Below the pieces are notes generated by a model. The model did no database searches. It worked only from the letters and a program-made list of their open reading frames with translations, and was not told the origin of the DNA. From positions 2,020 to 66,019 of the forward strand of contig JAEEHV010000038.1 of the NCBI GenBank assembly GCA_016280955.1: DNA of 64,000 bases. Reading direction: 5' to 3'. This DNA is from Candidatus Gastranaerophilales bacterium. GTDB lineage: Bacteria > Cyanobacteriota > Vampirovibrionia > Gastranaerophilales > Gastranaerophilaceae. The first letter of the stretch is position 1, and every line of letters starts with the position of its first letter. Shown piece by piece: positions 18 through 53,867 of the stretch. The position numbers and the translations under genes were made by a program.

Positions 18-695
18 TTGATTCAGGCTATTGAATATATTCAAAAATTAATTAAAACACCGGAAGTGATGATTAAAAAGTCTTTGAAAATAAAAAAACA
101 AAAATCACCCGGAAAGAATGTAAAAAAGGAATTGGCTGAATTTATTCGGTCTGTTAAACAAAGGCTGAATAAATCTTCAGGACAGGAAATACAGAAAACT
201 CTGCAATCTTTTAAACAAAATTTACCGGAAGATTGCTCAGAACGTGAATTAATTGAGTATATTGATGTTATAAAACGAATGTTAACACAATCTTCAAAAC
301 AAGATTTGGCTAACTCCCAAAGACAGCTGCTTGTTTTGCTTAAACAAGTATTAACAAAACTAACTGAACCCAAATTAACACAATACTCCGAACAAAAATT
401 CTCAAAAGAAGGCTTAAATGAATATCTGTCGAATTGGGATTACTATTATAAAAACGGATTTACAAAAAGATTCAGAACATGCAATCTTTTGAATGAGAGA
501 TTAAACATGACGGATGAGGAATATAATGATTATGCGGAAAGAGTTAAAGGCAAAAAAATTTACAATGAAATTATAAAAAGATGCAATCAGGATATTGAAA
601 ATGCAATTTTATCCAATGAATCAAAGGCAACAATTTCAGCATTATTTGATACTTTAAACCTATTTATTTATAAATTTTCACATTATAACAAATAA
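18..695 (+). CDS. hypothetical protein, largely helical
   Basis: 225-aa ORF with no recognisable motif; TTG start uncertain. Confidence 0.55.
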   Translation: MIQAIEYIQKLIKTPEVMIKKSLKIKKQKSPGKNVKKELAEFIRSVKQRLNKSSGQEIQKTLQSFKQNLPEDCSERELIEYIDVIKRMLTQSSKQDLANSQRQLLVLLKQVLTKLTEPKLTQYSEQKFSKEGLNEYLSNWDYYYKNGFTKRFRTCNLLNERLNMTDEEYNDYAERVKGKKIYNEIIKRCNQDIENAILSNESKATISALFDTLNLFIYKFSHYNK

Positions 696-796
696 AATTT
701 GTTAAAATTTGATTTTTTAAAATTTATTATTAATCATTCAAATAGATGAAGTCATAGTGTAAATAATAATACATAATACATGTGTGAGAATATATT

Positions 797-1285
797 ATGC
801 CCTTCAGATACAGATTAGAGAAAATCCTTAAAGATCGTATCAGACAAAAAGAAGCACAACAGGTAGTTGTGCATAAAGCACAAATGGTTGTGTATGAAGT
901 TGAAGAACGTATAAGACAAAACGAAGCAGAAATACAGGAAACCATAAAAAATAAAAGAACGGCAGATTTCAGAATGATGGAATATTACGATAATTACTTA
1001 CATCACCTCTGGGATAAAGCTGAAGTCCTTGAACAGGAACGTAAACAGGCACAGGCAGCACTTGATAAAGAAAAACAGAAACTAATCGAGTGTGAACAAA
1101 AAGTAAAAGTTCTTGAAAAGCACAAAGAACGAAAAAAAGAACTTTATATAGAAGAAGAAAAAAAAGCAGAATTAAAACAATATTCTGAAATCGGTGTACA
1201 GCGGTTCTTCATGCAAAAACGAGACGAAGCTGAAGAAATGGAAATGGAACTGGAATCGGAACAAAACGAATCGGAAGGATATTAG
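797..1285 (+). CDS. fliJ: flagellar export protein FliJ-like
   Basis: N-terminal MPFRYRLEKIL matches the FliJ F.FRL..vL pattern; 162-aa all coiled coil; sits upstream of fliK-like and hook/rod genes. Confidence 0.75.
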   Translation: MPFRYRLEKILKDRIRQKEAQQVVVHKAQMVVYEVEERIRQNEAEIQETIKNKRTADFRMMEYYDNYLHHLWDKAEVLEQERKQAQAALDKEKQKLIECEQKVKVLEKHKERKKELYIEEEKKAELKQYSEIGVQRFFMQKRDEAEEMEMELESEQNESEGY

Positions 1286-1294
1286 GAAAAAAAT

Positions 1295-2428
1295 ATGAAT
1301 ATTGAATCAACAGCAACTACTACAAACATTTCAACTCCATCAGTAAATTCCAAAACAAACACAACAACACAAGTGAATGATTCAAATTCATCACCAAGTT
1401 TTGCTGATGAATTGAAAACATCAAAGACGACAGAAAGTACGGAAACAAAAGAAAAAACTTCTGCAAAGCAAGAATCTCAAGAACAGGTAAAAAATGCTCA
1501 GGAAAAGGTTACAAAAGAAGAGAAAAAAGCCGCAGAAGAAAAGGTTGTAGATGAAACAGGCAATTCCCCGGAAAATACTGAAAACATAGATAGTGCGATT
1601 GACGGACTTAAATATGCAGTTCATGAACTCAATGAAGCAACTCAAAAAGAAAATTATACTAAAAATTTTATTCAGGAAACTTTTACAACTAAAACTGATG
1701 AAAAATATGAGGATAATATTTTGATTGATAATAATATGAATATTCCGGAACCGACGGAAAAGCTAATGATGCAGACCGGTGCGGAAATGAATTTTAACAG
1801 TAACGGTCAACCGTTTGCCGAGTTTATAAACAATGAACAAGATAATAAACTTAGTTCTTCTGCAAAAGATATTGCCGAAGAAAAAGCGATATTATCTTCT
1901 ATGGAAGAAAATATCGCTATTGCGAACAAAAATATAGCTTTATCTAAAACCAAAACCGTAGAAAATGAACAAGGGATTAAAAAAGTTGACAGAAATACAA
2001 ACATAACGGTTGATACTATTGTAAAATACGATTCAGTCATTATGACGGAAGCAGATGTTGACTTTTTTGCAAACCTTGTAAACAATAACGGATTGCTGAA
2101 TATCAGCGATATTGAATCTTCGGCAAAATCCGCTCAGGTATCTAAAACACTGGCAGACATGCTTGCTAAAGCAATGAACGATAACAAACCTATAAGAATA
2201 GATTTTGACAATGACATTTCTGTCATTATAAAAATAGATAGAGCAGGTAAAATATCAGCAGATTTTCTCCCGTCTTCTCAGGTGGCAGAGGCATATCTGA
2301 AAGAAAATTTACCGCTTCTGAAACAAAGATTTGATGACAATAACATTGACTACAATGAATTAAATCAAAGACAACGAAAACAGGAACAAGACCAAGAAAA
2401 CAGAAAGAAGGGACGCAACAATGAATGA
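1295..2428 (+). CDS. fliK: flagellar hook-length control protein FliK-like
   Basis: Long T/S/N/E/K-rich disordered N-terminus; C-terminal IRIDF..ISVIIKID..GKISADF....AEAYLKENLPLLKQRF resembles the FliK C-domain; gene context. Confidence 0.6.
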   Translation: MNIESTATTTNISTPSVNSKTNTTTQVNDSNSSPSFADELKTSKTTESTETKEKTSAKQESQEQVKNAQEKVTKEEKKAAEEKVVDETGNSPENTENIDSAIDGLKYAVHELNEATQKENYTKNFIQETFTTKTDEKYEDNILIDNNMNIPEPTEKLMMQTGAEMNFNSNGQPFAEFINNEQDNKLSSSAKDIAEEKAILSSMEENIAIANKNIALSKTKTVENEQGIKKVDRNTNITVDTIVKYDSVIMTEADVDFFANLVNNNGLLNISDIESSAKSAQVSKTLADMLAKAMNDNKPIRIDFDNDISVIIKIDRAGKISADFLPSSQVAEAYLKENLPLLKQRFDDNNIDYNELNQRQRKQEQDQENRKKGRNNE

Positions 2429-3257
2429 TTTGTACACAACTGCGATAAATACCCAAAAAGCAACAACCCAATGGATGGATTTCCTGGCGGAAAATATGAC
2501 AAACATTTATACGCCCGGCTTCAGAGAAAACAAAATTACATTTAAAACATTTCTTGGCGGTGCGGTAATAGATAATAACGTTAAAAATCAAGACCAGGGA
2601 AAATCAATTCCCGGAACATCAAATGAGAATTTATTTTTCGAAGGCAAAGGTTTCTTTATGCTCAGAACTCCGGAAGGAAATGTTTCATACACACGTTTAG
2701 GTGAATTTACATTTGACTCGGAAGGTGTTTACAGAGCAAAAAGCGGTGCAACAGTTCAGGGCTATATTCTGAACGACAAGGGTGAAATAATGTCCGGTAC
2801 AAAATCTATAAGTGCTGATTTATACGAAGAAACAGCATTAAAAGGCGGTGCATTAAGTATTCCGACAACAAATATCAAACTATGGATTGATCCGAATAAT
2901 GGTAAGTTTTTAGGAAAATATGACGAATACGAAATTAAAAATGACGGTACTATATACGGTAAAGCTGATGGCGGAAATCGTATGGTGCCTTTGTATAAAA
3001 TTGCTACGGCAAACTTCCATAATCCTAACGGTTTGTACGAAGTAAAAGATGGTGTATTTGTAGAAACTCCTGAGTCAGGAAAACCTGTCGTAGGTCGTGG
3101 TGAGATTCGTTCAGGTCTTTTGGAACAGGCTAATACTGATTTTAAGGCAAATATTTCAAATTATCAGCAGGCAAAAGTCCAGATGGAGCTTGTTAATGCC
3201 CTGATTAAATCAAATAAAGACTTGCTGCAATCAGCAATGGAAATGGCTACACAATAG
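2421..3257 (+). CDS. flagellar hook/basal-body rod protein (FlgE/FlgF/FlgG family)
   Basis: AENMTNIYTPGFR N-terminal rod motif, EGKGFF, YTRLGEF, and C-terminal SGLLEQANTDF...YQ. Confidence 0.8.
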   Translation: MNDLYTTAINTQKATTQWMDFLAENMTNIYTPGFRENKITFKTFLGGAVIDNNVKNQDQGKSIPGTSNENLFFEGKGFFMLRTPEGNVSYTRLGEFTFDSEGVYRAKSGATVQGYILNDKGEIMSGTKSISADLYEETALKGGALSIPTTNIKLWIDPNNGKFLGKYDEYEIKNDGTIYGKADGGNRMVPLYKIATANFHNPNGLYEVKDGVFVETPESGKPVVGRGEIRSGLLEQANTDFKANISNYQQAKVQMELVNALIKSNKDLLQSAMEMATQ

Positions 3258-3313
3258 TATTAAATATATAAAAATTATTATAAAAATTTTCATATTAGTT
3301 AAACTCCGTTTTT

Positions 3314-3351
3314 AAGGGAATTAAGGGACACTTTAATTCCTTTTATTTTTT
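3314..3351 (+). terminator. intrinsic terminator after the flagellar genes
   Basis: aagggaattaagg-gaca-ctttaattccttt stem followed by a T-run. Confidence 0.75.
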
Positions 3352-3517
3352 GGTCAATGCTTGTGCCGGTTTAACGAATGACATGTTTGATGAGTGTACA
3401 TGGCAGTAAATGCATAAATTACACAATGGATAGCATAATCTGAGAATGTAAATACATTCAGTCCTTAAAGTTTATTTTTATAGTGATTATAAACATATTT
3501 TATGTTAAAACGTAATT

Positions 3518-4360
3518 ATGGCTAAGTTTGATTTACATTTGCACAGCAATAATTCAGATGGGAGTGAAACCGTTGAGGAGCTTATTCAAACGGTTATAAA
3601 TTCCGGCATCAAAATTTTTGCACTGACTGATCATGATACTGCTGCAGGAATTGAGAAGATTTCGGTCCTCGTTTCGCCGAAAATAAAATTTATTAAAGGT
3701 ATTGAACTTACTTGTAAAACCGGAAATATTAAATGCCACATACTCGGTTACGGAATTAATCCCGAAAATAAGGAGCTAAAAGATCTTATAGCTCTCGGTA
3801 AAAAGTTACGCAGACAGAAACTGGAAACAAGAATCAATTATTTGAAAGAGGTTTGGAATATTGAGCTTACTCAAGAAGAGCTTGACTGGCTATATTCAAG
3901 ACAAAGTGTTGTAAAAACTCATTTTGCTAACATTCTGGTAAACAGGGGGTTATCAGACAATAATGTTGATGCAATGAAAAAATATCTTGACGGTTGTAAA
4001 ACCGGGAATACTAAATTTGATGGTGAAGCTGCAATAAGTACGATTTTGAAAGCCGGAGGTATTCCTGTCTGGGCGCATCCGCTTGGTGGCGAAGGAGAAG
4101 AACATCTTACGGAAGATGAATTTATTTCCAAACTTGAAATAATGGCAAATTGCGGCATACAAGGACTTGAGTGCTATTATTCAAGATATTCGCTTAAGGA
4201 AGAAAAATTCCTTGCTAACTGTGCAAAAAAGTACAATCTGCTTATATCAGGCGGTAGTGACTGGCATGGAAAAAATAAAACAGTACAAATCGGCAGTCTG
4301 AATACAGAATTTTGCGAAATTGATTCAAAGCAAATAACTATTTTAGATAGGCTTTTGTAA
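3518..4360 (+). CDS. PHP-domain phosphoesterase (TrpH/YciV-like)
   Basis: DLHLHS..SDG, ALTDHD, GIEL, AHP and GGSDWHG motifs. Confidence 0.9.
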   Translation: MAKFDLHLHSNNSDGSETVEELIQTVINSGIKIFALTDHDTAAGIEKISVLVSPKIKFIKGIELTCKTGNIKCHILGYGINPENKELKDLIALGKKLRRQKLETRINYLKEVWNIELTQEELDWLYSRQSVVKTHFANILVNRGLSDNNVDAMKKYLDGCKTGNTKFDGEAAISTILKAGGIPVWAHPLGGEGEEHLTEDEFISKLEIMANCGIQGLECYYSRYSLKEEKFLANCAKKYNLLISGGSDWHGKNKTVQIGSLNTEFCEIDSKQITILDRLL

Positions 4361-4364
4361 ACAG

Positions 4365-5612
4365 TTAAATCTTGCCGGCTTGTTCAACGTATGCGTTGAT
4401 ATCTTCATCAGAATTCATTTCGGTTGCACAAACTAAAATTTGTTTATTATTAAGTTTGATTCCGCCCAATATTCCTGTTTCTTTAAGTCTGCTTAAAAAC
4501 ATATCGGAATCTTTAACTTCAATTACAAATTCATTAAAAAAGTTTTTATTCAGAGTCTTAATACCTTTTTCTTGAAGCATTTGAGAAAGTTTATGAGCAT
4601 TATTTGCAGAAATAATTCCGGTTTCTCTGAATCCCTTTTCTCCGAGCAAGCTCAGATATAAAGTTGCAGAAAGGGCAATAAGAGATTGATTTGAACAAAT
4701 ATTACTTGTAGCTTTTTCTCTCTTTATATGCTGCTCTCTTGTCTGAATAGTAAGAGTAAATGCCTGTTTGCCGTCTGCATCTAAAGTTCTTCCGACCAGT
4801 CTTCCCGGAAGTTGACGCATATAAACTTCTTTGCATGCCATATAACCGGCATGGGGACCGCCAAAATTCATCGGAATTCCCAGCGGTTGTATATCTCCGA
4901 CAACTATATCCGCTTCTGCAGGCGGATTGATTACGGAAAGTGCAGACAGATTTGCACAAACAATAAAAGTTGTATCAGGTTTCTTAAGCTGATAAATTTC
5001 TCCGTAATAGTCAGGATATTGAACTAATACACAGCAAGCATCAGATACGTTGTCCGGGAGTTCATCAAACCACTTTAATTCAATATCTTTAGCCCATGCA
5101 TATGTTTTAATAACTTCTTTGTATTCCGGATTAAGCTTGTTTGATATAAGAGCTTTATTTAACTTGCCTCTGTTAATTCTGTGAGCCATTAAAACGGCTT
5201 CTGCACATGCGGAACCGCCATCATACATAGATGCATTTGCAATATCCATGCCGGTAATACGTGATATCATTGTCTGATATTCATATATGACTTGTAAAGT
5301 TCCCTGAGATATTTCAGGCTGATACGGGGTGTATGCCGTTAAGAATTCAAAACGTTGTGCCGTATAGTTAACAGCAGCCGGTATAAATTTATTATAAACT
5401 CCGCCCCCGAGAAAAGATATATAATCTGTTTTATTTTTCTTTGAGAGTGCTTTTATTCTTTTTTGCGTTTCAAGCTCACTCAGCGGATTATCCATCTTAA
5501 ATTCTTTAAACAATACGGGAATGTGTTTGAATAAATCATCAATTGAAGATTTATTCACCGAGTTCAGCATCTCTTGTCTTATATCATCAGTATGTGCGAT
5601 AAAATTTTTCAT
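4365..5612 (-). CDS. gcvPA: glycine dehydrogenase (decarboxylating) subunit 1
   Basis: FLTAYTPYQPEISQG, ANASMYDG, FGGPHAG, LQTREQHI.REKATSNIC-type motifs; 415 aa, the size of the split P1 subunit. Confidence 0.93.
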   Translation of the reverse strand: MKNFIAHTDDIRQEMLNSVNKSSIDDLFKHIPVLFKEFKMDNPLSELETQKRIKALSKKNKTDYISFLGGGVYNKFIPAAVNYTAQRFEFLTAYTPYQPEISQGTLQVIYEYQTMISRITGMDIANASMYDGGSACAEAVLMAHRINRGKLNKALISNKLNPEYKEVIKTYAWAKDIELKWFDELPDNVSDACCVLVQYPDYYGEIYQLKKPDTTFIVCANLSALSVINPPAEADIVVGDIQPLGIPMNFGGPHAGYMACKEVYMRQLPGRLVGRTLDADGKQAFTLTIQTREQHIKREKATSNICSNQSLIALSATLYLSLLGEKGFRETGIISANNAHKLSQMLQEKGIKTLNKNFFNEFVIEVKDSDMFLSRLKETGILGGIKLNNKQILVCATEMNSDEDINAYVEQAGKI

Positions 5613-5986
5613 TATTCCACTTCTTCTTTATAGTCAGAGTAATCAAGCAAATCTGCCATTTCAACCTGATCGGCATCAGATTCGATTTTTATAAACCATT
5701 TATTTTCATAACTTTCATCGTTAAGCAGTTCAGGGCTGTTTACAATTTCCTCGTTAATTTCAATAACTTTTCCGGAAATTGGCATATAAACTTCAGAAGC
5801 AGCTTTAACTGATTCGATTGTTGCAAACACTTCACCTTTTGTAAATTCGCTGTCTGTGTCGGGAAGTTCAACAAAAACAATGTCGCCCAATTGTTCAATA
5901 GCATAATCGGTTATACCGACTTCATATATGCCATCTTTTTCTAAAATGTATTCATGAGTTTTGGTACATAGCATGTTTTCGTCCAT
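5612..5986 (-). CDS. gcvH: glycine cleavage system H protein
   Basis: VGITDYA.EQLGDIVFVELP and lipoyl motif IESVKAASEVY. Confidence 0.95.
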   Translation of the reverse strand: MDENMLCTKTHEYILEKDGIYEVGITDYAIEQLGDIVFVELPDTDSEFTKGEVFATIESVKAASEVYMPISGKVIEINEEIVNSPELLNDESYENKWFIKIESDADQVEMADLLDYSDYKEEVE

Positions 5987-10247: not shown

Positions 10248-12926
10248 ATGTCAGAAAAAAAGACTTTGATATTAATTGATGGTCATGCTTTAGCTTTCAG
10301 GCAATTTTTCGCTCTTGAACGTACGGGAATGAAAAATTCGGAGAATTTGCCTACCTGGGCTGTTTACGGATTTTTTAAAGCTATTTTTGACTTACTTGCA
10401 AAAATTCAGCCTGATTTTATAGCAGTTGCTTTTGATGTCGGCAGACAAACCTTCAGGGTTGAAAAATATGAAGAATATAAGGCTCAAAGAGAAGCAATGC
10501 CTGACAGTTTGAGAACACAGATAGGATTAATCTGTGAAGGACTGAATGCTTTTGACATTCCTATTTATACAAAAGAAGGTTTTGAGGCTGATGATGTTAT
10601 CGGCACAATATCAAGAATTGCATCGGAAAACGGGCATAATACACTCATACTGACAGGAGATCAGGATAGTTTTCAGCTTATAGACAGAGATGGAACAGTA
10701 AAAGTATTAATTCCGCACAAAGGGGAACTGATTGAGTATGACTGGAATAAAGTTTACGAAAAATTAGGTGTTTATCCGAATCAGATTACTGATTATAAAG
10801 GGCTTAGGGGAGATACTTCAGATAACATCCCGGGTGTTAAAGGAATTGGAGAAAAAACGGCACAAAAATTATTGAACCGTTATCCTAATTTGGAAGCTGT
10901 TTTAGAAGATTGTCAAAATATTCCGGAAAATGCCGTTAGACAAAAAATATGTGAAGGAAAAGAGATTGCCGTTTTGTCAAAGGATTTGGCAACAATAGTT
11001 CGGGATGTAGAAATTGATTTTGATATAAAAACCGCAAAGGTTACACTACCCAGTTTAGATAAAGTTTCTGAATTTCTCCGTCAAATGCAGTTTTATACTT
11101 TTATAAAAAATATTGATAAAATCTTAGGCTCATTTAACGGTGAAAAAGTCGAGCCCGAAAATTTAAGCATATTTGCTTCTCAGCCGAAAAATAATTCTTT
11201 TGAACCTGTGCAGCAGGGATTATTCAGTCAGGCTATAAAGGAAAATATAGATGATTCCGACTTTGAATATGAAATAGTATCGGATAAATCCGTAATAAAT
11301 AATTTAAAGAATGAAAAACAACTGGCTGTAAGATATTATGTGAAAGACGGTAAAATCGATGCGATATCCGTTTCAAACGGTAAAAAGTCATATTATTTCA
11401 GCGAAGAATATATAAATGATCTGAAAGATATTATTGAATCACCTGATATTAAAAAATTCGGCTATGATATGAAATCGGATTATCATGTTCTTTTAAATAA
11501 CGGTTTAAAACCGGAAGGTTTTGATTATGATGTTCTTTTGGCAAGTTACGTCAAAGATCCGAACAGAAAACACACACTGGATGCACAGGCTTTGGACTTT
11601 TTAAATCATATTATGTGCCAACCGTTTGAACAGGAAAAATATGCCTGTGACGAAGTTTACACAATATACAAGCTGTATGAATACTGGCAAACTAATCTGG
11701 ATGAAGAAGAACAAAAACTTGTTAAAAATATTGAGATGCCGCTAACACTTGTACTTGGGAAGATGGAGCATACAGGGGTAGCAATAGATGTTGATTATTT
11801 GAAGGAACTTTCCGATTACATGACGGAAAAACTTGCAGAGCTTGAGGATTTGATTTTCCAGCTTGCAGGCGAAAGTTTTAACATAAATTCTCCAAAGCAG
11901 GTTGCAGAAGTTCTTTTCGATAAACTGGAATTAAAAACAAAGAAGAAAAAATCCCGTTCTACAAGTGCGGAAGTTTTGGAGGAGCTGGCTCAGGAATATG
12001 AAATTTGCCAGTACATTTTAGAACACAGGAAATTTTCAAAATTAAAATCAACATATACGGATGTTCTTCCGACATTAATCAGCAAACGAGATAATAGAAT
12101 ACATACAACATATAATCAGGCACTGACTGTGACGGGCAGATTATCTTCTTCAAACCCTAACTTACAAAATATACCGATAAGAACCGAAGAAGGGAACAAA
12201 ATACGTTCGGCATTTTGTGCAGAAGATAAAGAAAACTGGCTGATTTTGAGTGCTGATTATTCTCAGATTGAACTCCGCTTATTGGCGCATGTTTCCGGTG
12301 ATGAACATCTGATACACGCATTTACGACAGGTGAAGATATACATACAATGACTGCTGCAAAAGTTTTTGGTGTCGGATTGGATGAAGTTACAAAGGAAAT
12401 GCGCAGAAGAGCGAAGGCTGTTAATTTTGGTATTGTTTACGGTCAGTCAAAATATGGTTTGGCAAAAAGTATAGGAATTACAAATGATGAGGCTCAGGAA
12501 TTTATAGATAAATATTTTGCGACTTATCCCGGAGTCCGTGACTATATGATTAATGAAATAGAGTATGTAAACACTCATGGATACGTAGAAACCATATTTG
12601 GCAGAAAACGATATTTGTCGACCGAGCTTTCAAGTCCGAATTATCAAATAAGAGAGTTTGCACAACGAGCCGCAATAAATCAGCCATTACAGGGAACTGC
12701 TGCCGATTTGATGAAAATGGCTATGATAGAAACGGATAAACTGCTTTCTGAAGGTAATTTTAAAACCAAAATGATTATGCAGGTTCATGACGAACTTATA
12801 TTTGAAGTTCCGAAAGAAGAGCTGGAAGATATAAAATCCCTTGTGCTAAAGGCAATGGAACTAGGACAACCTCTGAAGGTTCCGCTTGATGTTGATATAA
12901 ATTACGGGATATCCTGGAAAGAATAA
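10248..12926 (+). CDS. polA: DNA polymerase I
   Basis: 5'-3' exonuclease (LIDGH, EADDVIG, GDTSDNIPGVKGIG) plus family A polymerase motifs (DYSQIELR, RRAKAVNFG, QVHDEL). Confidence 0.98.
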   Translation: MSEKKTLILIDGHALAFRQFFALERTGMKNSENLPTWAVYGFFKAIFDLLAKIQPDFIAVAFDVGRQTFRVEKYEEYKAQREAMPDSLRTQIGLICEGLNAFDIPIYTKEGFEADDVIGTISRIASENGHNTLILTGDQDSFQLIDRDGTVKVLIPHKGELIEYDWNKVYEKLGVYPNQITDYKGLRGDTSDNIPGVKGIGEKTAQKLLNRYPNLEAVLEDCQNIPENAVRQKICEGKEIAVLSKDLATIVRDVEIDFDIKTAKVTLPSLDKVSEFLRQMQFYTFIKNIDKILGSFNGEKVEPENLSIFASQPKNNSFEPVQQGLFSQAIKENIDDSDFEYEIVSDKSVINNLKNEKQLAVRYYVKDGKIDAISVSNGKKSYYFSEEYINDLKDIIESPDIKKFGYDMKSDYHVLLNNGLKPEGFDYDVLLASYVKDPNRKHTLDAQALDFLNHIMCQPFEQEKYACDEVYTIYKLYEYWQTNLDEEEQKLVKNIEMPLTLVLGKMEHTGVAIDVDYLKELSDYMTEKLAELEDLIFQLAGESFNINSPKQVAEVLFDKLELKTKKKKSRSTSAEVLEELAQEYEICQYILEHRKFSKLKSTYTDVLPTLISKRDNRIHTTYNQALTVTGRLSSSNPNLQNIPIRTEEGNKIRSAFCAEDKENWLILSADYSQIELRLLAHVSGDEHLIHAFTTGEDIHTMTAAKVFGVGLDEVTKEMRRRAKAVNFGIVYGQSKYGLAKSIGITNDEAQEFIDKYFATYPGVRDYMINEIEYVNTHGYVETIFGRKRYLSTELSSPNYQIREFAQRAAINQPLQGTAADLMKMAMIETDKLLSEGNFKTKMIMQVHDELIFEVPKEELEDIKSLVLKAMELGQPLKVPLDVDINYGISWKE

Positions 12927-47835: not shown

Positions 47836-49068
47836 TTAAAAAGAAATAACCTCATGGAACGAATCGATTGCAAATGTATCACTCATTCCTGAGAGGAAAT
47901 CCAGAACACAGTTTTTATATTCCTGCTCATCATCAAGATGATAAATAAGTTTGTTTTTGCATCTTTTGTTTTCTTTTTCCGCTAAATTATAGTCGGAGTA
48001 TTTAGTAAGCCATCCTTCATAAATAGTGTATAACTTAGGATACAGGATTTTTTCTTTTGCGATAACATCTCTGACGTTATTGCCTGTTAAATTTTCTCCA
48101 AGCTGTTCATAAAGAGTTTCAATAATGAGAGTTGCATATTTTTTAAACTTCGAAATTCTTGGGTGGTTACAGATATTTTTGTAATTGAATTGTTTTACAA
48201 GTTTAAGCACCTGGAAGCAATCCTCAGAGAAACAAAGCCCGTCCTCTATTGAGGAATTAGCACACAGGTTCAGTATCAAAGAGTGTGTGAAAGAGGATGT
48301 GTTTAACTCGTTTATTTTAATATTGGGATAAATGGTATGAACAACATTCAATAATTCTTCTTTTTGCTCTTTTTTCAGAATACCGTATGAAATGGCATCT
48401 TCTATATCACGTCCTATATAACCGATTTTATCGGATATTTTTACAACACACCCTTCGTAAGTATATGCCCCGTTTTTACCTCCTTTTTGGATTGAATACA
48501 GATCACAGGCATCTTCTCTCGGTTTAACATATCTTTCATCAACTTCTCCGCAATGACATACAATACCGTCACGAACTGCATATGTAAGGTTTAAATTTTG
48601 CTGATAACCGCTATAGTCAGTGATAGTTTCAATTTTATCAATAAATCTAAGACTGTTATTTTCATGCCAAAAAGAGTGAAGGTTATTCGCTTCTGCAATA
48701 TCCTGCAAAACAGTTTCACCATGGTGTCCAAACGGTGCATGTCCTATATCGTGCCCGAGTGCAATAGCTCTTGCAAGCTCTTTATTAAGGTTTAGGTACT
48801 TGGCAATTGTTTCAGCAACGGAGGCTACAAGCTGAACATGCTCCATTCTTGTACAAACGTGGTCATTCTGAGGAGCAAAGAATACCTGAGTTTTATGCTT
48901 TAGCCTTCGGTATCCTTTAGAGTGCATAATCCGCATTTCATCACGTTCAAACGGAGTCCGCAAATCGTTCTCTTTTTGATAAAGTTCGGCTTCTCTTGAG
49001 ATTGCCTGTTCCCACTTGGGGTTGTTTTCATCCATTCTGACACATGAAAAATCTGCAAGCTTATTCAT
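47836..49068 (-). CDS. dgt: dGTP triphosphohydrolase-like HD-domain protein
   Basis: RTPFERD..RI.HS..YRRL.HKTQVF, TR..H, GHDIGHAPFGH.GE, SD.I.Y..RDIED, D..SGMSD. Confidence 0.9.
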   Translation of the reverse strand: MNKLADFSCVRMDENNPKWEQAISREAELYQKENDLRTPFERDEMRIMHSKGYRRLKHKTQVFFAPQNDHVCTRMEHVQLVASVAETIAKYLNLNKELARAIALGHDIGHAPFGHHGETVLQDIAEANNLHSFWHENNSLRFIDKIETITDYSGYQQNLNLTYAVRDGIVCHCGEVDERYVKPREDACDLYSIQKGGKNGAYTYEGCVVKISDKIGYIGRDIEDAISYGILKKEQKEELLNVVHTIYPNIKINELNTSSFTHSLILNLCANSSIEDGLCFSEDCFQVLKLVKQFNYKNICNHPRISKFKKYATLIIETLYEQLGENLTGNNVRDVIAKEKILYPKLYTIYEGWLTKYSDYNLAEKENKRCKNKLIYHLDDEQEYKNCVLDFLSGMSDTFAIDSFHEVISF

Positions 49069-49136
49069 ACTTTATCCGCTCCTGTATCTCTTTACCACTA
49101 TGACCGTTAAAATTATTTTGTTATCGTTTCATTTTA

Positions 49137-51134
49137 TCAGAATCCTATACTGTTTTTCAACTCTTTGGATTTTTTTACTTTTACTTCTTCTCTTAGCATT
49201 GTTACAATTTCGTCCAAATCAATAATATCCAGAAAATCAGTTTTCTTTTTAACGGTTGCAAAATCTCCCGCAGTCAACCCTTTAATATCGATATTTTTAT
49301 CTTTAACTTTTATTCCGAAAAAGTGTTCAATTGCACAATTTACCTGTTCATTGTTCATAAAGTCGAAGCGGATTTTAAATGTAAAGCGTCTCAGAGATGC
49401 TTCGTCCAATGTATCAAGCAGGTTTGTAGTACATACAAACGGATATTCATGCGATTCCATCCAAGTAAGCATTTCATTAACTTGTGTAATTTCCCAGGAA
49501 TGTGATGCATTATTTCTGTTTTGTAAAAAGCTGTCTGCTTCATCAAAAATCAGCATCGCTTTTTTAGATTTTGCTTCCGCAAAAGCAGCGGCAATGTTCT
49601 GCTCTGATTCGCCAACCCATTTGCTCATCAAATCACTTGCCCTTTTATAAATAACTTCAACACCGAGCTGTTTTGCAAGATACCTTGCATATTGAGATTT
49701 TCCTGTTCCCGGCTCACCATACAGGCAAAGTGAAAAATTGAGCTTTCCGCAAGATTTTATTTTTTGTGTAAGATTTTTTATGTCAACGTCAGTATTAACA
49801 AGACTTTCATCGTATTCTTTTAATTCAAATTCTTTTTTGTTTTTTACGTTTTTCTTTTTCGTCACAACCTTGGCAACATTCTCAATTAGACCTTCAAAGT
49901 CATTTTCATCACCGCCAATCATTTTTGTTGTCTGAACGGCATTAGAAATAAGTGATGGAGGAATATCATAGTTTTTATTTAATTCCGTTAATTTTTCTTT
50001 GCTGACCTTTAGTTTATTCTTTTTAATAACTCTGTTCCAGATATTGAGCCTTGTTTCTTCAGACAGTTTTTCAAATTCAATACAATAAGTCATTCTTCTG
50101 AGGAAAGCCGGATCCACATCGTATATGTTATTTGTAGTCCAGATTATTGGAACGGACGTTGTTTCCAGAAGGGTATTAAGATAGCCTTTTGATGCCGAAC
50201 CTCCGTAACCGAACCCTCTGTTCATAACATCTTCGCCTTCATCAAAAAGAATACAGGCACCTTCGGTTCTGGAAAGTAAATGCTGCTTTGCATTCAAATC
50301 CACAAGTCGATCTTCTCTGTCGGCTTCTTTATAATTCATATTTCCCAATTCTGTTATAACGGAATACATAGGAATGTTTGCTTTATTTGCAATCAGTTTT
50401 GAGTATTCGGTTTTTCCTGTTCCGACACCGCCATACAGAAGAATATTAACTCCTTTTTTCTTTTGCATAACTGCCTGAGATAAAATATTTATAACCTTTT
50501 GAGTATCTTTGATATGAGAAAAATCCTCAAGTTTTAATGTTGCTTTTTGTTTTTTTCCTATAAGAATGCTGATTATTTTATCTGCAGAATCACATTGCGG
50601 ATTATCCAGAATTTCCAGAAAAATATCGTTTATACAATCACTGCGTCTGCTTTCGGTAATATTTTTCCGGTGCAGACCGTCTAAAAGACGTTCCTTCTTG
50701 CCGCATCTGAGTCCCAGATAGACTCTTGAAAAAGTGGACAGAGATTGATTTTCCAAACATTCAAAATACTTGTCAAAAATATTATTGATTTCTTTGAATG
50801 CCATATATAGTAATATTTCATACTCCATATTATTTAGTGTAAAAATCTCTTTGATAGTTAATAATTGCTGCTCAAGCTTAGTGTTTCTCGGCTGAATTTT
50901 TTCTTTAAGTTTTTTTACAACTTTTTTCATCTGTTTAGCAAAAACTTCCCTTGCTTTTGTTGACTCAAGTTCAAGGTTTCCGTCTTTATCAATACAATCA
51001 AACTGTTTCGGGTTAATCTTAAATTCGTTCAGCATAAAATCAAATACGGCATCAAACGAATAACTGTTAGTATCAGTTACCGGCATAAGTTTTTCCACAT
51101 AATCTAAAAATTTTCTTTTTTCAAAATTGTTCAT
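49137..51134 (-). CDS. tandem (two-domain) AAA+ ATPase with N-terminal helical domain
   Basis: Walker A GGVGTGKT and GEPGTGKS; Walker B ILFDE and LIFDE; AAGGAG RBS before ATG 51134. Confidence 0.9.
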   Translation of the reverse strand: MNNFEKRKFLDYVEKLMPVTDTNSYSFDAVFDFMLNEFKINPKQFDCIDKDGNLELESTKAREVFAKQMKKVVKKLKEKIQPRNTKLEQQLLTIKEIFTLNNMEYEILLYMAFKEINNIFDKYFECLENQSLSTFSRVYLGLRCGKKERLLDGLHRKNITESRRSDCINDIFLEILDNPQCDSADKIISILIGKKQKATLKLEDFSHIKDTQKVINILSQAVMQKKKGVNILLYGGVGTGKTEYSKLIANKANIPMYSVITELGNMNYKEADREDRLVDLNAKQHLLSRTEGACILFDEGEDVMNRGFGYGGSASKGYLNTLLETTSVPIIWTTNNIYDVDPAFLRRMTYCIEFEKLSEETRLNIWNRVIKKNKLKVSKEKLTELNKNYDIPPSLISNAVQTTKMIGGDENDFEGLIENVAKVVTKKKNVKNKKEFELKEYDESLVNTDVDIKNLTQKIKSCGKLNFSLCLYGEPGTGKSQYARYLAKQLGVEVIYKRASDLMSKWVGESEQNIAAAFAEAKSKKAMLIFDEADSFLQNRNNASHSWEITQVNEMLTWMESHEYPFVCTTNLLDTLDEASLRRFTFKIRFDFMNNEQVNCAIEHFFGIKVKDKNIDIKGLTAGDFATVKKKTDFLDIIDLDEIVTMLREEVKVKKSKELKNSIGF

Positions 51135-51202
51135 GGTTTTGCTCCTTGTTAAACGGGATATCACATTCCCTTTTGCTATTCATTTTCGTTTCTTACATAT
51201 AC

Positions 51203-51234
51203 ATAATATCAGACAAATGCGACAGAAATGGACG
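51203..51234 (-). promoter_or_regulatory. WYL-activator-like (-26 element) promoter of the AAA gene
   Basis: CGTCCATTTC-TGTCGC-N10-TATTAT on the minus strand. Confidence 0.55.
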
Positions 51235-51262
51235 GAGGAAGAAAAACTTTTTTCTTCCTCCG
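51233..51262. terminator. 14-bp perfect inverted repeat between the DUF2130 and AAA genes
   Basis: cggaggaagaaaaa-ct-tttttcttcctccg. Confidence 0.6.
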
Positions 51263-51299: not shown

Positions 51300-52610
51300 T
51301 TATTTTTTCTTTTTTTTGTCCGTTATTTTTAAGGCATCAAATTTTGCTTTCATTGTCGGATTATTTCTTGTAAGCTTTTTAATACTAAGGTCTTCTACCT
51401 TATTGTTAGCGGAGCTGAGGTGCTTTTCGGATAAAAGCAGTGCATCTTTTATACTCTGCAGATTTTTGATGGCTTTATCAATACCAGATATAGCATCATT
51501 AAACCTCAAGCCTGCATCTTTCACGTTTTTAACAAATTTATCCTTAAAATCGTTTAATTCGGCTTCGAAATTGGACACATCAATGTTTTGCATTTTTATC
51601 CGCTCAAGTTCTTTTCTGTATTCAAGCGAATGTCTTGCTGCATCTCTGAGCAGGGTAATTATCGGAATAAAGAACTGAGGTCTTATTACATACATTTTTT
51701 CATATTTATAAGAAACATCAACAATTCCGCTGTTATATAAATCACTTTCCGGCTCAAGAAGTGATACTAAAACTGCATATTCACATTTCTTTTCTTTGCG
51801 GTCTTTATCGAGTTCTTTAAAGAAATCTTCGTTCTTTTTCTTAGTCGATGTTGTGTCTGCTTCGTTTTTCATCTCAAACATAATCGATATATATTCATTT
51901 TTATCTTCATCGTATGCTCTGAAAATATAGTCGCCTTTACTGCCGGATTTTACATCATTGTCTTTTTCAAAATACGAACCTGAAAAAGCAGTAGAACGGA
52001 ATCTGTTGAACTCTGTTTCGCAGTGTTGTTCAAGAGTTTCACCAATCATTTTAGTTGATAATTTTGCTTTAAAATCTTTGTATTGTTCGATTGTTTCATC
52101 TTTGAGCTTAAGCTGAATTTCATATCTTTCTTTGAGTGATTGTTCTCTGAGCAGACATTCTTTTTCTGTTAATGCCTGTTCGCTTTTAAGTTTTTCAATG
52201 CTGTTTTCTTTTTTCGCTATTTCTTCGGTTAGTTTTGACTCAAGTTTTTTTAATTCAAGCAGCTTATCTTTCTCAAAAGATGAAAGCTGATTCCTGAGTT
52301 CGGCAATTTCTTTATCTTTTTCGGCAGCAGTTTCTTTAACGGCAGATTTTTTAATAAGGTCGCTTTCTTTAATTTTAGCTTCCAGTTTTGCAATTTCAGC
52401 ATCTTTTTTCGTTAATTCAATATTGAAGCCTTTTTCTGCTTCCAGTTTTGCAACCTGAATTGCCTGATTTTTTTCTGATTCAAATTGCTGCTCACGGCTT
52501 TGAAGCTCTTTAGAGAATTCTTTATCTCTTACCTGTTTAAGTATTGCAGCATATCCTGCTTCATCGATTTGAAATTTTTCACCGCATTTTGGGCATTGAA
52601 GATTGTTCAT
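51300..52610 (-). CDS. DUF2130-like coiled-coil protein with a putative PD-(D/E)xK nuclease domain
   Basis: N-terminal CPKCG..F.IDE, long coiled coil, KGD.....IMFEMKNE and YEKMYVIRPQFFIP; start at ATG 52610 with GAGGT RBS. Confidence 0.8.
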   Translation of the reverse strand: MNNLQCPKCGEKFQIDEAGYAAILKQVRDKEFSKELQSREQQFESEKNQAIQVAKLEAEKGFNIELTKKDAEIAKLEAKIKESDLIKKSAVKETAAEKDKEIAELRNQLSSFEKDKLLELKKLESKLTEEIAKKENSIEKLKSEQALTEKECLLREQSLKERYEIQLKLKDETIEQYKDFKAKLSTKMIGETLEQHCETEFNRFRSTAFSGSYFEKDNDVKSGSKGDYIFRAYDEDKNEYISIMFEMKNEADTTSTKKKNEDFFKELDKDRKEKKCEYAVLVSLLEPESDLYNSGIVDVSYKYEKMYVIRPQFFIPIITLLRDAARHSLEYRKELERIKMQNIDVSNFEAELNDFKDKFVKNVKDAGLRFNDAISGIDKAIKNLQSIKDALLLSEKHLSSANNKVEDLSIKKLTRNNPTMKAKFDALKITDKKKKK

Positions 52611-52662
52611 GGTTATTACCTCTTTTTTGTTTAATTTAGTATCATTAGTTTTTGGTTGTTTT

Positions 52663-53109
52663 TTAGTTGTTTTTGTTGTGTACATAAGTACCTCCTTTTA
52701 TTTTAGTACAGTTGGAAAATTTTGGACTTGGTTCGAGTTCGTTAATGTTATCCATTACGAACCGGTAAATCTGCCTGAAGTATTCTATGTTATCGTTTGT
52801 AACAAATTGTTCGTGACAGTTTGTACAGTAGAATTGGATTGTATGTGCGCCGGAAAGAACCGAACCCCCGCACATATAGGGGATTAAAGTATTAATTTTG
52901 CAGTTTGGACAGATTTCTTTTTGAAACAATCCGCTTTTCAGCCGGTATGAACCGAGCCAGATAAGAGCCGCATCAAGCGGCATTTGGTCATTAAGTTCGG
53001 AGCTGTTTATATGAGAAAAAATCTCAGGATAAATTTCTCCGGCATAATGAGTTTTTGTTTTTGACGGAAGCTGCTTTTCAACTTCACTTTTTGATTTGAA
53101 TTTTGTCAT
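52663..53109 (-). CDS. hypothetical protein with a C4 zinc-ribbon
   Basis: CPNC and CTNC pairs; GAGGT RBS; first gene after the SAM riboswitch terminator. Confidence 0.75.
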   Translation of the reverse strand: MTKFKSKSEVEKQLPSKTKTHYAGEIYPEIFSHINSSELNDQMPLDAALIWLGSYRLKSGLFQKEICPNCKINTLIPYMCGGSVLSGAHTIQFYCTNCHEQFVTNDNIEYFRQIYRFVMDNINELEPSPKFSNCTKIKGGTYVHNKNN

Positions 53110-53210
53110 TTTTCGTTACCTCATATTTAATATTTCTTATCAGGTTTCCCTGATTTTATACGTTTGATAACTCATAGAGGCACGAATGGTTAACACATAT
53201 CTTTTTTAAG

Positions 53211-53249
53211 GAAAAGAAAAAGGCTCATCGCAATGACAAGCCTTTTCTT
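53211..53249 (-). terminator. riboswitch-associated intrinsic terminator
   Basis: Minus strand aagaaaaggctt-gtcat-tgcg-atga-gcctttttctttt. Confidence 0.8.
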
Positions 53250-53284
53250 GCAAGCAAAGTTAGTTACACAAAGCAGAAAGGAGG

Positions 53285-53381
53285 TCTCATCATTCAAGCA
53301 TTAGCACCTTCAGAATAAAATATATTTATTCCGGGTTGCTGTGTAGTCATCGGGCTTGTCCCTCGTACACTCTCTATGAGA
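53285..53381 (-). ncRNA. SAM-I (S-box) riboswitch aptamer, P4-less variant
   Basis: P1 tctcat/atgaga; AGAG; P2 gtgta/tacac with kink-turn and GAGGGAC..GCCCGATGA; AGCAACC...AAGGTGCTAA (P3); loop CAAG can pair with CTTG (pseudoknot). Confidence 0.88.
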
Positions 53382-53416
53382 TTGGTTATTCAATTTTCAA
53401 TGTATTTGTTATTGTT

Positions 53417-53488
53417 TTAATCATCAAAGAAATCTTCGAGTTCATCCCAATAACAGAATAAAAGTAGTCCTATTAGCCAGAGAGGCAT
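53417..53488 (-). CDS. unannotated 23-aa small protein MPLWLIGLLLFCYWDELEDFFDD
   Basis: AAGAGGTGG Shine-Dalgarno 5 nt before ATG; candidate promoter directly upstream. Confidence 0.55.
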   Translation of the reverse strand: MPLWLIGLLLFCYWDELEDFFDD

Positions 53489-53527
53489 TTTTACCACCTC
53501 TTTTTGTTTATTTTCTCTGATATTTTT

Positions 53528-53559
53528 ATTGTAAAATACTGCTGTGTCAAAAATGGACG
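53528..53559 (-). promoter_or_regulatory. WYL-activator-like (-26 element) promoter
   Basis: CGTCCATTTT-TGACAC-N10-TACAAT on the minus strand. Confidence 0.55.
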
Positions 53560-53576
53560 TATGTATTTTATTATTT

Positions 53577-53867
53577 TTAAATTACTTTCAGCATCGGATG
53601 TTTTTTTATAAAACGAAGCTTGCTGAATGCTTGTGCTTCAATCTGTCGGACTCTTTCTCTTGTAATTCCGAAAATATTTCCGACTTCATTAAGAGTTTTC
53701 GGAATATTGTCAGCCAAACCGTAACGTAATGCTATTACATCCTGTTCTTTTAATTTAAGCTGCTGAAAGTCAGATACTTTAAAAGTTATTTCAAATTTTT
53801 TGTTGTTAGAATCTTTTGTAATAACTATTTCGTCTTTGTTTCTTGTAACATTAATTTCCTGTTTCAT
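53577..53867 (-). CDS. standalone sigma70 region-4 HTH protein
   Basis: VIALRYGL....[29 protein letters not shown]; no region 2 or 3. Confidence 0.85.

Follow-up and report, generated by a model that had tools for sequence, protein, structure and literature searches.

Introduction

The genes controlled by a riboswitch are normally the best clue to the biology of its ligand, and SAM-I riboswitches, which respond to S-adenosylmethionine (SAM), constitute the textbook example of feedback on genes of methionine, cysteine and SAM metabolism. In the classical S-box leaders of Firmicutes, such as those of the met and cys genes of Bacillus subtilis, the P1 helix of the aptamer, an antiterminator and a terminator exchange strands in a manner that turns expression off in the presence of the ligand. 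Here, we describe a SAM-I element on the minus strand of a 64,000-nucleotide (nt) stretch from a Candidatus Gastranaerophilales bacterium, termed the window throughout, to whose positions all coordinates refer unless another locus is named. The element belongs to the same aptamer family, makes use of the same strand exchange and would follow the same OFF logic. In contrast to the classical leaders, it lacks P4 in its primary register, it precedes the gene of a zinc-ribbon ORFan (ZnR) instead of a Met/Cys/SAM gene, with other non-metabolic proteins as cargo of its relatives, it is followed by an additional predicted helix beyond the terminator that involves the Shine-Dalgarno (SD) sequence, and it is present as one copy per genome that is not located on metK. 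We regard it as likely that this RNA is a functional P4-less SAM-I OFF switch, whose regulated unit comprises ZnR and, in this genome, the overlapping gene of a DUF2130 protein, with the ATPase and dGTPase genes further downstream being neighbours, and that it is a member of a family of cassettes combining a riboswitch with an accessory gene. This family is distributed patchily in Gastranaerophilales and other gut bacteria, and its members place one conserved leader before many small proteins that are unrelated to each other. As such, the switch is of the textbook kind, whereas its systematic use before ORFan accessory genes and the proposed double lock on transcription and translation are not.

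Control of gene expression on two levels by a single aptamer has been described for lysC of E. coli, which acts on translation and via RNase E, for thiamine pyrophosphate (TPP) switches, which act on translation and Rho-dependent termination (PMC10907184), and for the SAM-II metA switch of Sinorhizobium meliloti (PMC9373788). These systems share with the leader in the window the ligand-dependent sequestration of the SD, which is here predicted, whereas in the latter an intrinsic terminator and a distinct SD hairpin would be coupled by a three-way competition for the 5' strand of P1. To our knowledge, such an arrangement, in which both structures are driven by the P1 5' strand, has been described neither for SAM-I nor in the lysC, TPP and metA cases. 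The abiF motif RNA (RCd22), a structured leader of a prophage AbiF gene in Clostridioides difficile that is subject to premature termination (bioRxiv 10.1101/2025.04.15.648962), may serve as a loose precedent for RNA control in cis of non-metabolic genes. Like the leader in the window, it is a structured 5' region that gates a non-metabolic gene associated with mobile elements. However, no metabolite ligand is known for the abiF motif, which functions as an RNA antitoxin, whereas the sensor described here is a SAM aptamer, and neither toxicity nor a role in defence is implied for its cargo. If the switches work as predicted, low SAM would constitute a general physiological or danger signal rather than a cue for making SAM, and the list of their cargo would provide a catalogue of 'low-SAM response' genes.

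A SAM-I aptamer without P4 and its terminator

A scan of the window with Rfam has identified a single RNA at gathering level, a match to the SAM-I family (RF00162) at 53382..53284, whose score of 63.1 bits exceeds the gathering threshold of 44.4 (E 2.7e-12) and which covers the full model span from position 1 to 108. It is the only SAM-I copy in the 2.78-Mb host genome, which is 97% complete. The Infernal alignment contains P1, P2, P3 and every letter of the core junctions; it has deletions throughout the P4 positions, and two pairs at the end of P1 are non-standard. The pseudoknot partners CAAG in the loop of P2 and CUUG in J3/4 are complementary, and the conserved core, which includes AGAG in J1/2, GCAACC...GGUGC of P3 and J3/4, aligns with the consensus at a posterior probability of '*'. 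As a whole, the leader of 301 nt folds better than 100 of 100 dinucleotide shuffles (z = -4.1). Its model score, its core and its attenuation logic identify the RNA at the level of sequence as a member of the SAM-I family, and its P4-less form presumably binds SAM.

The aptamer is followed by a terminator-like hairpin of 13 pairs at 53247..53217 with a subsequent T-run (Table 1). In an isolated fold of 53300..53195, the P1 3' strand AAUGAUGAG pairs with CUUGUCAUU in the 5' arm of the terminator (53240..53232) to form an antiterminator, and the two alternative pairings of this arm are those expected for S-box attenuation. The same design of terminator and antiterminator is found in 78 related leaders. 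In the mechanism suggested by these features, P1 of the SAM-bound aptamer would hold AAUGAUGAG, the terminator would form and transcription would stop, whereas at scarce SAM the strand would pair with the terminator 5' arm and RNA polymerase would read through. Since the MetK leaders of the same aptamer subtype employ the same exchange between P1 and the terminator and since metK must be repressed by SAM, we infer that the switch operates in the OFF direction. A sequence-only reading of this DNA, which preceded our analysis, had proposed a SAM-I aptamer with P1, P2, P3 and the CAAG/CTTG pseudoknot but without P4, followed by an intrinsic terminator with a 5' arm able to pair with the aptamer 3' strand. 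The Infernal search recovered the former, and the terminator scan and fold recovered the latter. The same reading had been right in noting non-standard pairing in P1, which concerns two end pairs and not the one mismatch it described.

Conserved linkage to ZnR and probable extent of the regulated unit

The relationship between the riboswitch and its downstream gene is illustrated by their distribution (loci, genomes and contigs carry labels starting with L, G and C). Of the 37 genomes of the genus, SAM-I is present in three (G000, G008 and G026), which are the same three that encode a ZnR homologue, in each case on the strand of the riboswitch and 180-190 nt further downstream; the chance of drawing the identical three genomes is 1/7770. 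Elsewhere in the order, SAM-I of other families is located before metK. In metagenomes and GTDB genomes, where homologues of 45-77% identity define the ZnR loci used for linkage, 13 of 14 distinct loci have a gathering-level SAM-I immediately before ZnR, at protein identities of 45-100%. This strong conservation across genomes bears out the earlier claim that the switch is linked to a non-metabolic gene. The same reading had also considered a decaying relic, which was cut off from its methionine gene and came to lie before ZnR by chance, an explanation to which we now assign next to no probability and which the conserved linkage effectively refutes. Although the missing P4 and the two irregular end pairs of P1 could be viewed as signs of decay, the RF00162 score is well above gathering, and the aptamer, the terminator, the antiterminator and the post-terminator element described below have all been kept together with ZnR over the full range of protein identity. 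Moreover, the P4-less design is common to all of the distinct leaders recovered for the subtype, including those of metK.

A different explanation would assign ZnR a role in methionine or SAM homeostasis, for example as a regulator or helper that replaces a metK riboswitch lost in this genus, so that the switch would exert ordinary feedback. In this genome, which contains no other SAM-I, the metK gene on contig C15 has a leader of only ~70 nt without an S-box. This explanation would also agree with the general observation that riboswitch cargo is normally ligand-related and with a subtype cargo that includes MetK as well as FGase-like enzymes and an M20 peptidase. However, the occurrence of ZnR in only three genomes of the genus argues against a core function. 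Of the 24 families that make up the cargo of the subtype, 23 are related neither to each other nor to SAM metabolism, and the cargo is not depleted in sulfur amino acids. ZnR itself displays no enzyme-like fold or family match, and its domain occurs in fusions with DnaB-like and DnaA-like proteins. On balance, we see little likelihood for a role in homeostasis.

The preferred reading, an OFF switch acting on ZnR, leaves the question of which further genes belong to the unit. In the window, the open reading frames (ORFs) of ZnR and DUF2130 overlap by 23 nt, and DUF2130 is found downstream of ZnR also in L018, L019, L029, L031 and L039; in L063 a DUF2130 ORF is located at the matching offset, with ZnR not confirmed there. 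In the remaining ZnR loci, there is either nothing downstream or unrelated genes, and an AAA ATPase and a dGTPase follow the riboswitch in this window only, among the ZnR loci examined. DUF2130 is thus the probable second gene of the unit. A perfect 14-bp hairpin located 38 nt past its stop codon, which was not called in a consensus terminator scan on account of its poor T-run, is a probable candidate for the end of the riboswitch-controlled unit, and the transcript would accordingly extend from the leader to this site.

A post-terminator element and a proposed translational lock

Beyond the terminator, the leaders of the subtype share further organization. The 5' strand of P1 is followed by the P4-less aptamer and the 3' strand of P1 (with the sequence AUGAG, AUAGG or AUGGG, depending on the class), and the second half consists of the terminator with its T-run, an adjoining element rich in pyrimidines and, finally, the SD with the start codon. 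Across leaders, the 5' arm of the terminator repeats the sequence of the P1 5' strand. In the window, the P1 5' strand and J1/2 (53380..53372) find their complement in the 3' portion of the element (CUCUAUGAG, 53179..53171), whose 5' portion (UUCGUGCCUC) shows complementarity to the SD region. Examples of the former complementarity include CUCAUAGAG/CUCUAUGAG in the window, CUCAUAAAG/CUUUAUGAG, CCUAUAAAG/CUUAUAGG and, in L029, CUCAUGGAG/CUCCAUGGG, and the latter is exemplified by GCCUCUCUG/CAGAGAGGU, CACUCUU/AGGAGUG, GCCUCCUAU/AUAGGAGGC and, in the window, UUCGUGCCUC/GAGGUAACGAA. SD hairpins are predicted in most related leaders. In the leader of the window, the unconstrained minimum free energy and centroid structures both pair the P1 5' strand with the element, and if P1 is enforced, UUCGUGCCUC buries GAGGUAACGAA up to 3 nt before the AUG.

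The specificity of these interactions was investigated in a partner-swap test, in which the duplex energies of true partners were compared to those of swapped partners in 14 class representatives with 20000 permutations, using segments that were delimited without an alignment by anchors not depending on structure, namely the start codon, the aptamer core and the point at which the terminator stem ends. For the P1 5' strand and the element, the energy of true partners was -10.97 kcal/mol compared to -8.44 kcal/mol for swapped partners, and for the element and the SD the respective values were -13.21 and -9.34 kcal/mol, with none of the 20000 permutations being as low in either case. In a control, the P1 5' strand and the SD showed no significant preference (-4.15 versus -3.83 kcal/mol, 1837 of 20000 permutations as low). 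A larger, non-collapsed set of leaders showed the same direction.

These results suggest a combined transcriptional and translational OFF control, whose second layer is derived from the described models. In the SAM-bound state, the element of any RNA that has escaped termination would pair with the SD and sequester it. Without SAM, the freed P1 5' strand would capture the element as it emerges, and the SD would stay open. One aptamer strand would thus perhaps drive both an intrinsic terminator and an SD lock, a compact natural design that is relevant to riboswitch mechanism and to synthetic biology.

Observations weighing against the proposed mechanism

Several observations weigh against this interpretation. 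A first set concerns the aptamer, which in the window has no P4. In relatives with a short leader, Infernal favours a register in which the antiterminator helix serves as P4 and the 3' arm of the terminator closes P1, as illustrated by L032, which scores 68.2 bits in this alternative four-helix register. If the four-helix form were the main binder of SAM, the logic of the switch could differ. It is possible that the four-helix register is adopted in the read-through RNA only, and a read-through mRNA with a re-formed four-helix aptamer could, on the basis of these models, fit a post-transcriptional translational switch.

A second set of observations concerns the translational layer. An alignment of 55 post-terminator regions with MAFFT and subsequent analysis by RNAalifold recovered no pairs because the 3' arms were misaligned, and support for the extra helices therefore comes from the partner-swap test. 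In an equilibrium model, the mean probability of the SD being unpaired increases from 0.17 to 0.32 in the presence of a free P1 5' strand, compared to 0.21 with a scrambled strand, and for the leader of the window itself it is 0.0 in both states. In light of this modest opening at equilibrium, the translational arm may be incorrect unless co-transcriptional kinetics come into play. In L019, the central triplet of the element is inverted, which weakens the long-range helix. With respect to the regulated unit, one ZnR lineage, which is the most divergent (L025/L026), carries no riboswitch, and the poor U-tract following the hairpin after DUF2130 leaves read-through into the AAA gene as a possibility.

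Table 1. Positions of the features described in the text; positions refer to the window unless a locus is given.
Feature	Position	Strand	Basis
SAM-I aptamer (P1, P2 with pseudoknot loop, P3; no P4 in this register)	53284..53382	-	RF00162, 63.1 bits
J4/1 and P1 3' strand AAUGAUGAG, common to P1 and antiterminator	53286..53294	-	fold of 53300..53195
Intrinsic terminator (13-pair stem, 5-nt loop, T-run)	53207..53247	-	terminator scan and fold
Putative post-terminator switching element UUCGUGCCUCUAUGAG	53171..53186	-	folds and partner-swap tests
ZnR Shine-Dalgarno region GAGGUAACGAA, predicted to be sequestered by 53186..53177 in the aptamer-folded state	53112..53122	-	constrained fold
ZnR gene, 148-residue zinc-ribbon protein, conserved regulated gene	52663..53109	-	conservation, AlphaFold2 model
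DUF2130 protein (N-terminal CxxC ribbon, coiled coil, PD-(D/E)XK-type C-terminal domain)	51300..52685	-	PF09903
Perfect 14-bp hairpin CGGAGGAAGAAAAA/UUUUUCUUCCUCCG	51233..51262	-	read from sequence
Double-AAA+ ATPase, 675 residues, two AAA stretches	49137..51164	-	profile scans
Promoter-like site of the dGTPase gene	49160..49131	-	consensus scan
dGTP triphosphohydrolase-family HD protein	47836..49068	-	TIGR01353
23-codon small ORF MPLWLIGLLLFCYWDELEDFFDD with strong SD (GAGGUGG), directly upstream of the aptamer	53417..53488	-	read from sequence
Promoter-like site (CGTCC-N6-TGACA inverted-repeat motif over -35-like TTGACA, then TACAAT or AAAAAT)	53522..53559	-	consensus scan, 10/12 matches
Secreted YGYNAHG(E/D)YVPTS-repeat protein	L018 5271-5690; L019 8934-9353; also L028, L029, L031, L039		

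A family of cassettes with unrelated cargo

The distribution of the leader was surveyed in a metagenome collection and in IMG/VR with a 42-nt degenerate pattern of the aptamer core. The search recovered 87 metagenome stretches in which this core is kept and one in IMG/VR, which after de-duplication correspond to 97 distinct leaders, 97 of which are P4-less. In 73 leaders a start codon could be assigned, and the encoded proteins fall into 24 mutually unrelated families, with MetK as the only SAM-related one. Homologous switches are thus not confined to methionine genes, an outcome on which the sequence-only reading had made its proposal depend. The most frequent cargo are ZnR-domain proteins with 21 distinct leaders, followed by a family of ~200 residues termed 'MEQQ' (10), a family of ~100 residues termed 'MRTIA' (7), FGase-like proteins (4) and MetK (3); of the other families, two are preceded by four leaders, one by three, one by two and many singletons by one each. 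An M20 peptidase is also found among the cargo. The proteins are small, with a median length of 141 residues. A comparison of ZnR and nine other families with Pfam, NCBIfam, PHROGs and PADLOC returned almost nothing, the exceptions being FGase and one weak match to a PHROG of unknown function. We have also considered that the cargo might be methionine-sparing, that is sulfur-poor, and have discarded this idea in light of its ordinary content of sulfur amino acids.

Individual loci of this set display particular arrangements. In L006 (1501-3245, G059:C10), a SAM-I match of 245 nt with a large insertion precedes an N-formylglutamate-amidohydrolase-like (FGase-like) gene, which is followed by a SIR2-like gene of 185 residues, and FGase-like cargo is found again in L065, L084 and L102. 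L079 contains two riboswitch copies that are 492 nt apart (~11400-12100, minus strand). One of them precedes a gene of 156 residues, whose family has a GSPLSGSNS motif that recalls GGSxLSGxHT in ZnR, whereas no start codon could be assigned after the second copy.

The genes surrounding the cassettes are heterogeneous, with 196 Pfam families among 150 non-redundant neighbour proteins. They include scattered GmrSD, Mrr, type I restriction-modification, resolvase and ankyrin/TPR proteins, and recognisable defence genes account for ~6-7%. The apparent enrichment in defence or mobile-element genes, gauged without a control set, is mild.

The patchy distribution, and the observation that near-identical aptamer cores reside on contigs of 28-56% GC, would be in line with genes that resemble the 'morons' of transposable prophages or integrative elements and that read host SAM as a cue, with ZnR-DUF2130 being a mobile-element module for replication, recombination or anti-restriction rather than serving the host. 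The cassette on the IMG/VR contig is located beside a Mu-G-like morphogenesis gene, a Dam-type methyltransferase and a recombinase, ZnR adjoins Mu A/B/GemA genes in L021, genes for a serine recombinase and an IS1595-type transposase are found near other loci, and the ZnR domain is fused to DnaB helicases of a phage or island type. Conversely, searches of IMG/VR and INPHARED returned no relative of ZnR, the ZnR cassettes of several species occupy one syntenic chromosomal site beside ftsI/ftsW, and the block in the window is flanked by housekeeping genes and contains no integrase, tRNA or repeat boundaries. The sole 'phage' match in GenBank (MT835503.1, L128, 5851-13895), which is annotated as 'UNVERIFIED: Bacteriophage sp.', shows the same leader design (SAM-I with 49 bits, a terminator and an SD hairpin) before an ORFan of ~91 residues. 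The match is surrounded by genes for ABC transporters, a TrpB-like protein, glutamate dehydrogenase and an aldo-keto reductase, and the stretch thus looks bacterial rather than phage-derived. The assignment to mobile elements, which overlaps with the cassette family proposed here, holds in our view a small but appreciable probability.

A related and rather unlikely interpretation of the cassette family would view the P4-less SAM-I clade as a 'methyl-donor alarm', whose cassettes, with ZnR-DUF2130 among them, fire only when SAM collapses and carry accessory genes of defence islands or mobile elements with roles in immunity, superinfection exclusion or restriction alleviation. Such a collapse could be caused by a phage SAM lyase or by any state in which the capacity for DNA methylation is lost, and the double lock of terminator and SD would prevent the expression of potentially harmful cargo as long as SAM is at its normal level.

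Properties of the ZnR protein

The family of ZnR is small. It comprises 39 clusters at 90% identity, and an exhaustive profile search of 1.84 billion proteins identified 51 representatives. Its invariant residues include C67, C70, H89, C95 and C98, and the motif PYxCGGSxLSGxHTIQFYC is invariant as well. An AlphaFold2 model (predicted local distance difference test 86.6, predicted template modelling score 0.80) indicates that ZnR is a real folded protein. A search of the PDB and BFVD with this model by Foldseek returned nothing better than E = 0.13, and we therefore refrain from transferring a function. There was also no match of ZnR in Pfam, NCBIfam, PADLOC or PHROG.

Among PDB sequences, residues 65-114 of ZnR show a weak profile match to residues 3-57 of MqsA (E = 1.5e-3) and further weak matches to RPA12-type ribbons. 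ZnR shares the CxxC...CxxC/H ribbon with the N-terminal zinc domain of MqsA (YgiT) and with ribbons of the TFIIS/RPA12 type. In contrast to MqsA, it has no helix-turn-helix (HTH) domain and no MqsR-like toxin in its neighbourhood, and with an overall fold lacking a Foldseek match the resemblance is too weak for membership. The assignment of ZnR as an MqsA-type antitoxin was rejected on these grounds.

In longer proteins, the ZnR domain is found as a C-terminal module. It is fused to a DnaB_C helicase in P0082, which scores 216 bits with the DnaB model TIGR00665, and in proteins of ~300-440 residues it follows an N-terminal domain that weakly but consistently resembles a degenerate DnaA ATPase (Pfam 3.7e-5, NCBIfam 6e-4, PDB 8bv3 9e-3). 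At least two types of these fusions are preceded by a riboswitch (L045, L073). The fusions point to a module for interaction with nucleic acids or replication proteins, but not beyond. ZnR would thus most likely constitute an adaptor binding to nucleic acids or replication proteins that is made only at low SAM and hence low methylation capacity.

Genes downstream of ZnR

The sequence-only reading had described four genes downstream of the riboswitch, encoding a zinc-ribbon, a DUF2130, a double-AAA and a dGTPase protein, in a block without a met, metK or methyltransferase gene, and profile scans agree with this description. The targets thus differ from the Met/Cys/SAM genes of an S-box regulon, ZnR being without family match and DUF2130 being of the PD-(D/E)XK type. 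The DUF2130 protein matches PF09903 with 290.6 bits compared to a gathering threshold of 26.7 (profile positions 2-255 of 255), a family that is listed as a member of the PD-(D/E)XK superfamily with function unknown (PMC3424549).

Homologues of the AAA protein form more than 1100 clusters, and they are found without a riboswitch in the contexts of mobile elements or defence islands (L124-L127), where their neighbours include McrBC, UvrD-nuclease, DnaB-like, reverse-transcriptase, integrase and Toprim genes. In L124 (1-16000), WYL, McrB, McrC and UvrD-PDDEXK genes and the AAA gene are followed by genes for a DnaB_C protein, a reverse transcriptase and HNH. In L127 (1-16000), the homologue resides in an integrative element located at a tRNA, together with integrases, DUF3102, Toprim, a resolvase and an excisionase-like HTH protein. 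Compared to IetA/IteA, the AAA protein in the window reaches 105.2 bits with its second AAA domain only, below the cut-off of 510, and its neighbours in the window include no IetS-like partner. A functional tie between the ATPase and the riboswitch, which was considered on the basis of homologues near the cassettes L042 and L044, was rejected since the family is very large and usually riboswitch-free. The dGTPase exceeds the cut-off of TIGR01353 (164.3 bits compared to 152.35) and falls below that of the NCBIfam model antiphage_dGTPase (NF041026, 123.3 bits compared to 400). It matches the PADLOC dGTPase model, which has no curated threshold, with E = 1.1e-53, and it has a paralogue on contig C59.

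These properties bear on the proposal, made in the sequence-only reading, that the four genes form an operon serving as a back-up defence against phages, which is turned on when a phage destroys SAM, for instance by a SAM lyase. The non-metabolic character of the cargo and the match of the dGTPase to PADLOC would fit such a role, as does the proximity of ZnR loci to defence or mobile-element genes, which include WYL regulators, HNH, Vsr and an AIPR-like gene in L018, MotA/OmpA-like genes and an SNF2 helicase in L019, WYL, a PIF1 helicase and Mu A/B/GemA in L021 and a UvrD-PDDEXK gene in L025. Similarly, AAA homologues are located beside McrBC, a UvrD-nuclease, a reverse transcriptase and integrases, with L042 and L044 containing other riboswitch cassettes, and elsewhere the genome carries the promoter motif described below close to the gene of a WYL regulator. 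However, the notion of a four-gene operon has not withstood the comparison of loci, where only ZnR is constant and DUF2130 is found in a subset, and the AAA and dGTPase genes, which accompany the riboswitch nowhere else, are separated from ZnR-DUF2130 by the strong hairpin after DUF2130 and by promoter-like sites. Further points against the proposal are the size and riboswitch-free occurrence of the AAA family, the failure to reach the cut-offs for the NCBIfam anti-phage dGTPase and IteA, the absence of a PADLOC match for ZnR, DUF2130 and nine other cargo proteins and the low share of recognisable defence genes among neighbour proteins. An anti-phage operon of this composition thus appears improbable to us.

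Upstream signals and neighbouring loci

The switch that we propose to act on ZnR and DUF2130 may be embedded in a longer transcript. The promoter-like site upstream of the aptamer is the likely start of a transcript that carries the small ORF and the riboswitch, and the latter may therefore be situated within the transcript, downstream of a gene for a small hydrophobic and acidic peptide, as far as can be judged from the arrangement of these signals. The C-terminal tail of this peptide, ...YWD(E/D)L.D..DD, is kept at the same position in L023 (...YWDDLADIYDDE), and L021, L023 and L024 each have a small ORF call at the corresponding site. The motif YGTCC-N5-6-TGACA-N9-13-TAnnnT occurs in six copies in the genome, one of them upstream of the ZnR block and the others on contigs C6, C28 and C80, with the two copies on C6 being within ~8 kb of a gene for a WYL-domain regulator. 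Related promoter motifs are found upstream of the riboswitch in L018, L019, L021, L028, L031, L039 and L046, and the shared motif possibly defines a WYL-type regulon.

A protein of 96 residues that consists of sigma-70 region 4 only is encoded just upstream on the same strand (53577-53867, minus). It has at least four paralogues in the genome, and similar genes are located upstream of the ZnR cassettes in L018, L019 and L023. In L019, the stretch directly upstream of the ZnR cassette (671-5836, G026:C49) encodes a MotA-like protein of 504 residues, an OmpA/MotB-like protein of 228 residues and an SNF2 helicase of 959 residues, an arrangement that looks Zorya-like in its gene content. In several species, a secreted protein of 139 residues with YGYNAHG(E/D)YVPTS repeats adjoins the ZnR cassette and ftsI/ftsW. 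Further upstream in the window, on the plus strand (54104-56953), an ORF of 949 residues without Pfam match, which has weak paralogues on two other contigs, contains an internal repeat of ~90 residues (~80-170 and ~125-214) whose copies are 59% identical.

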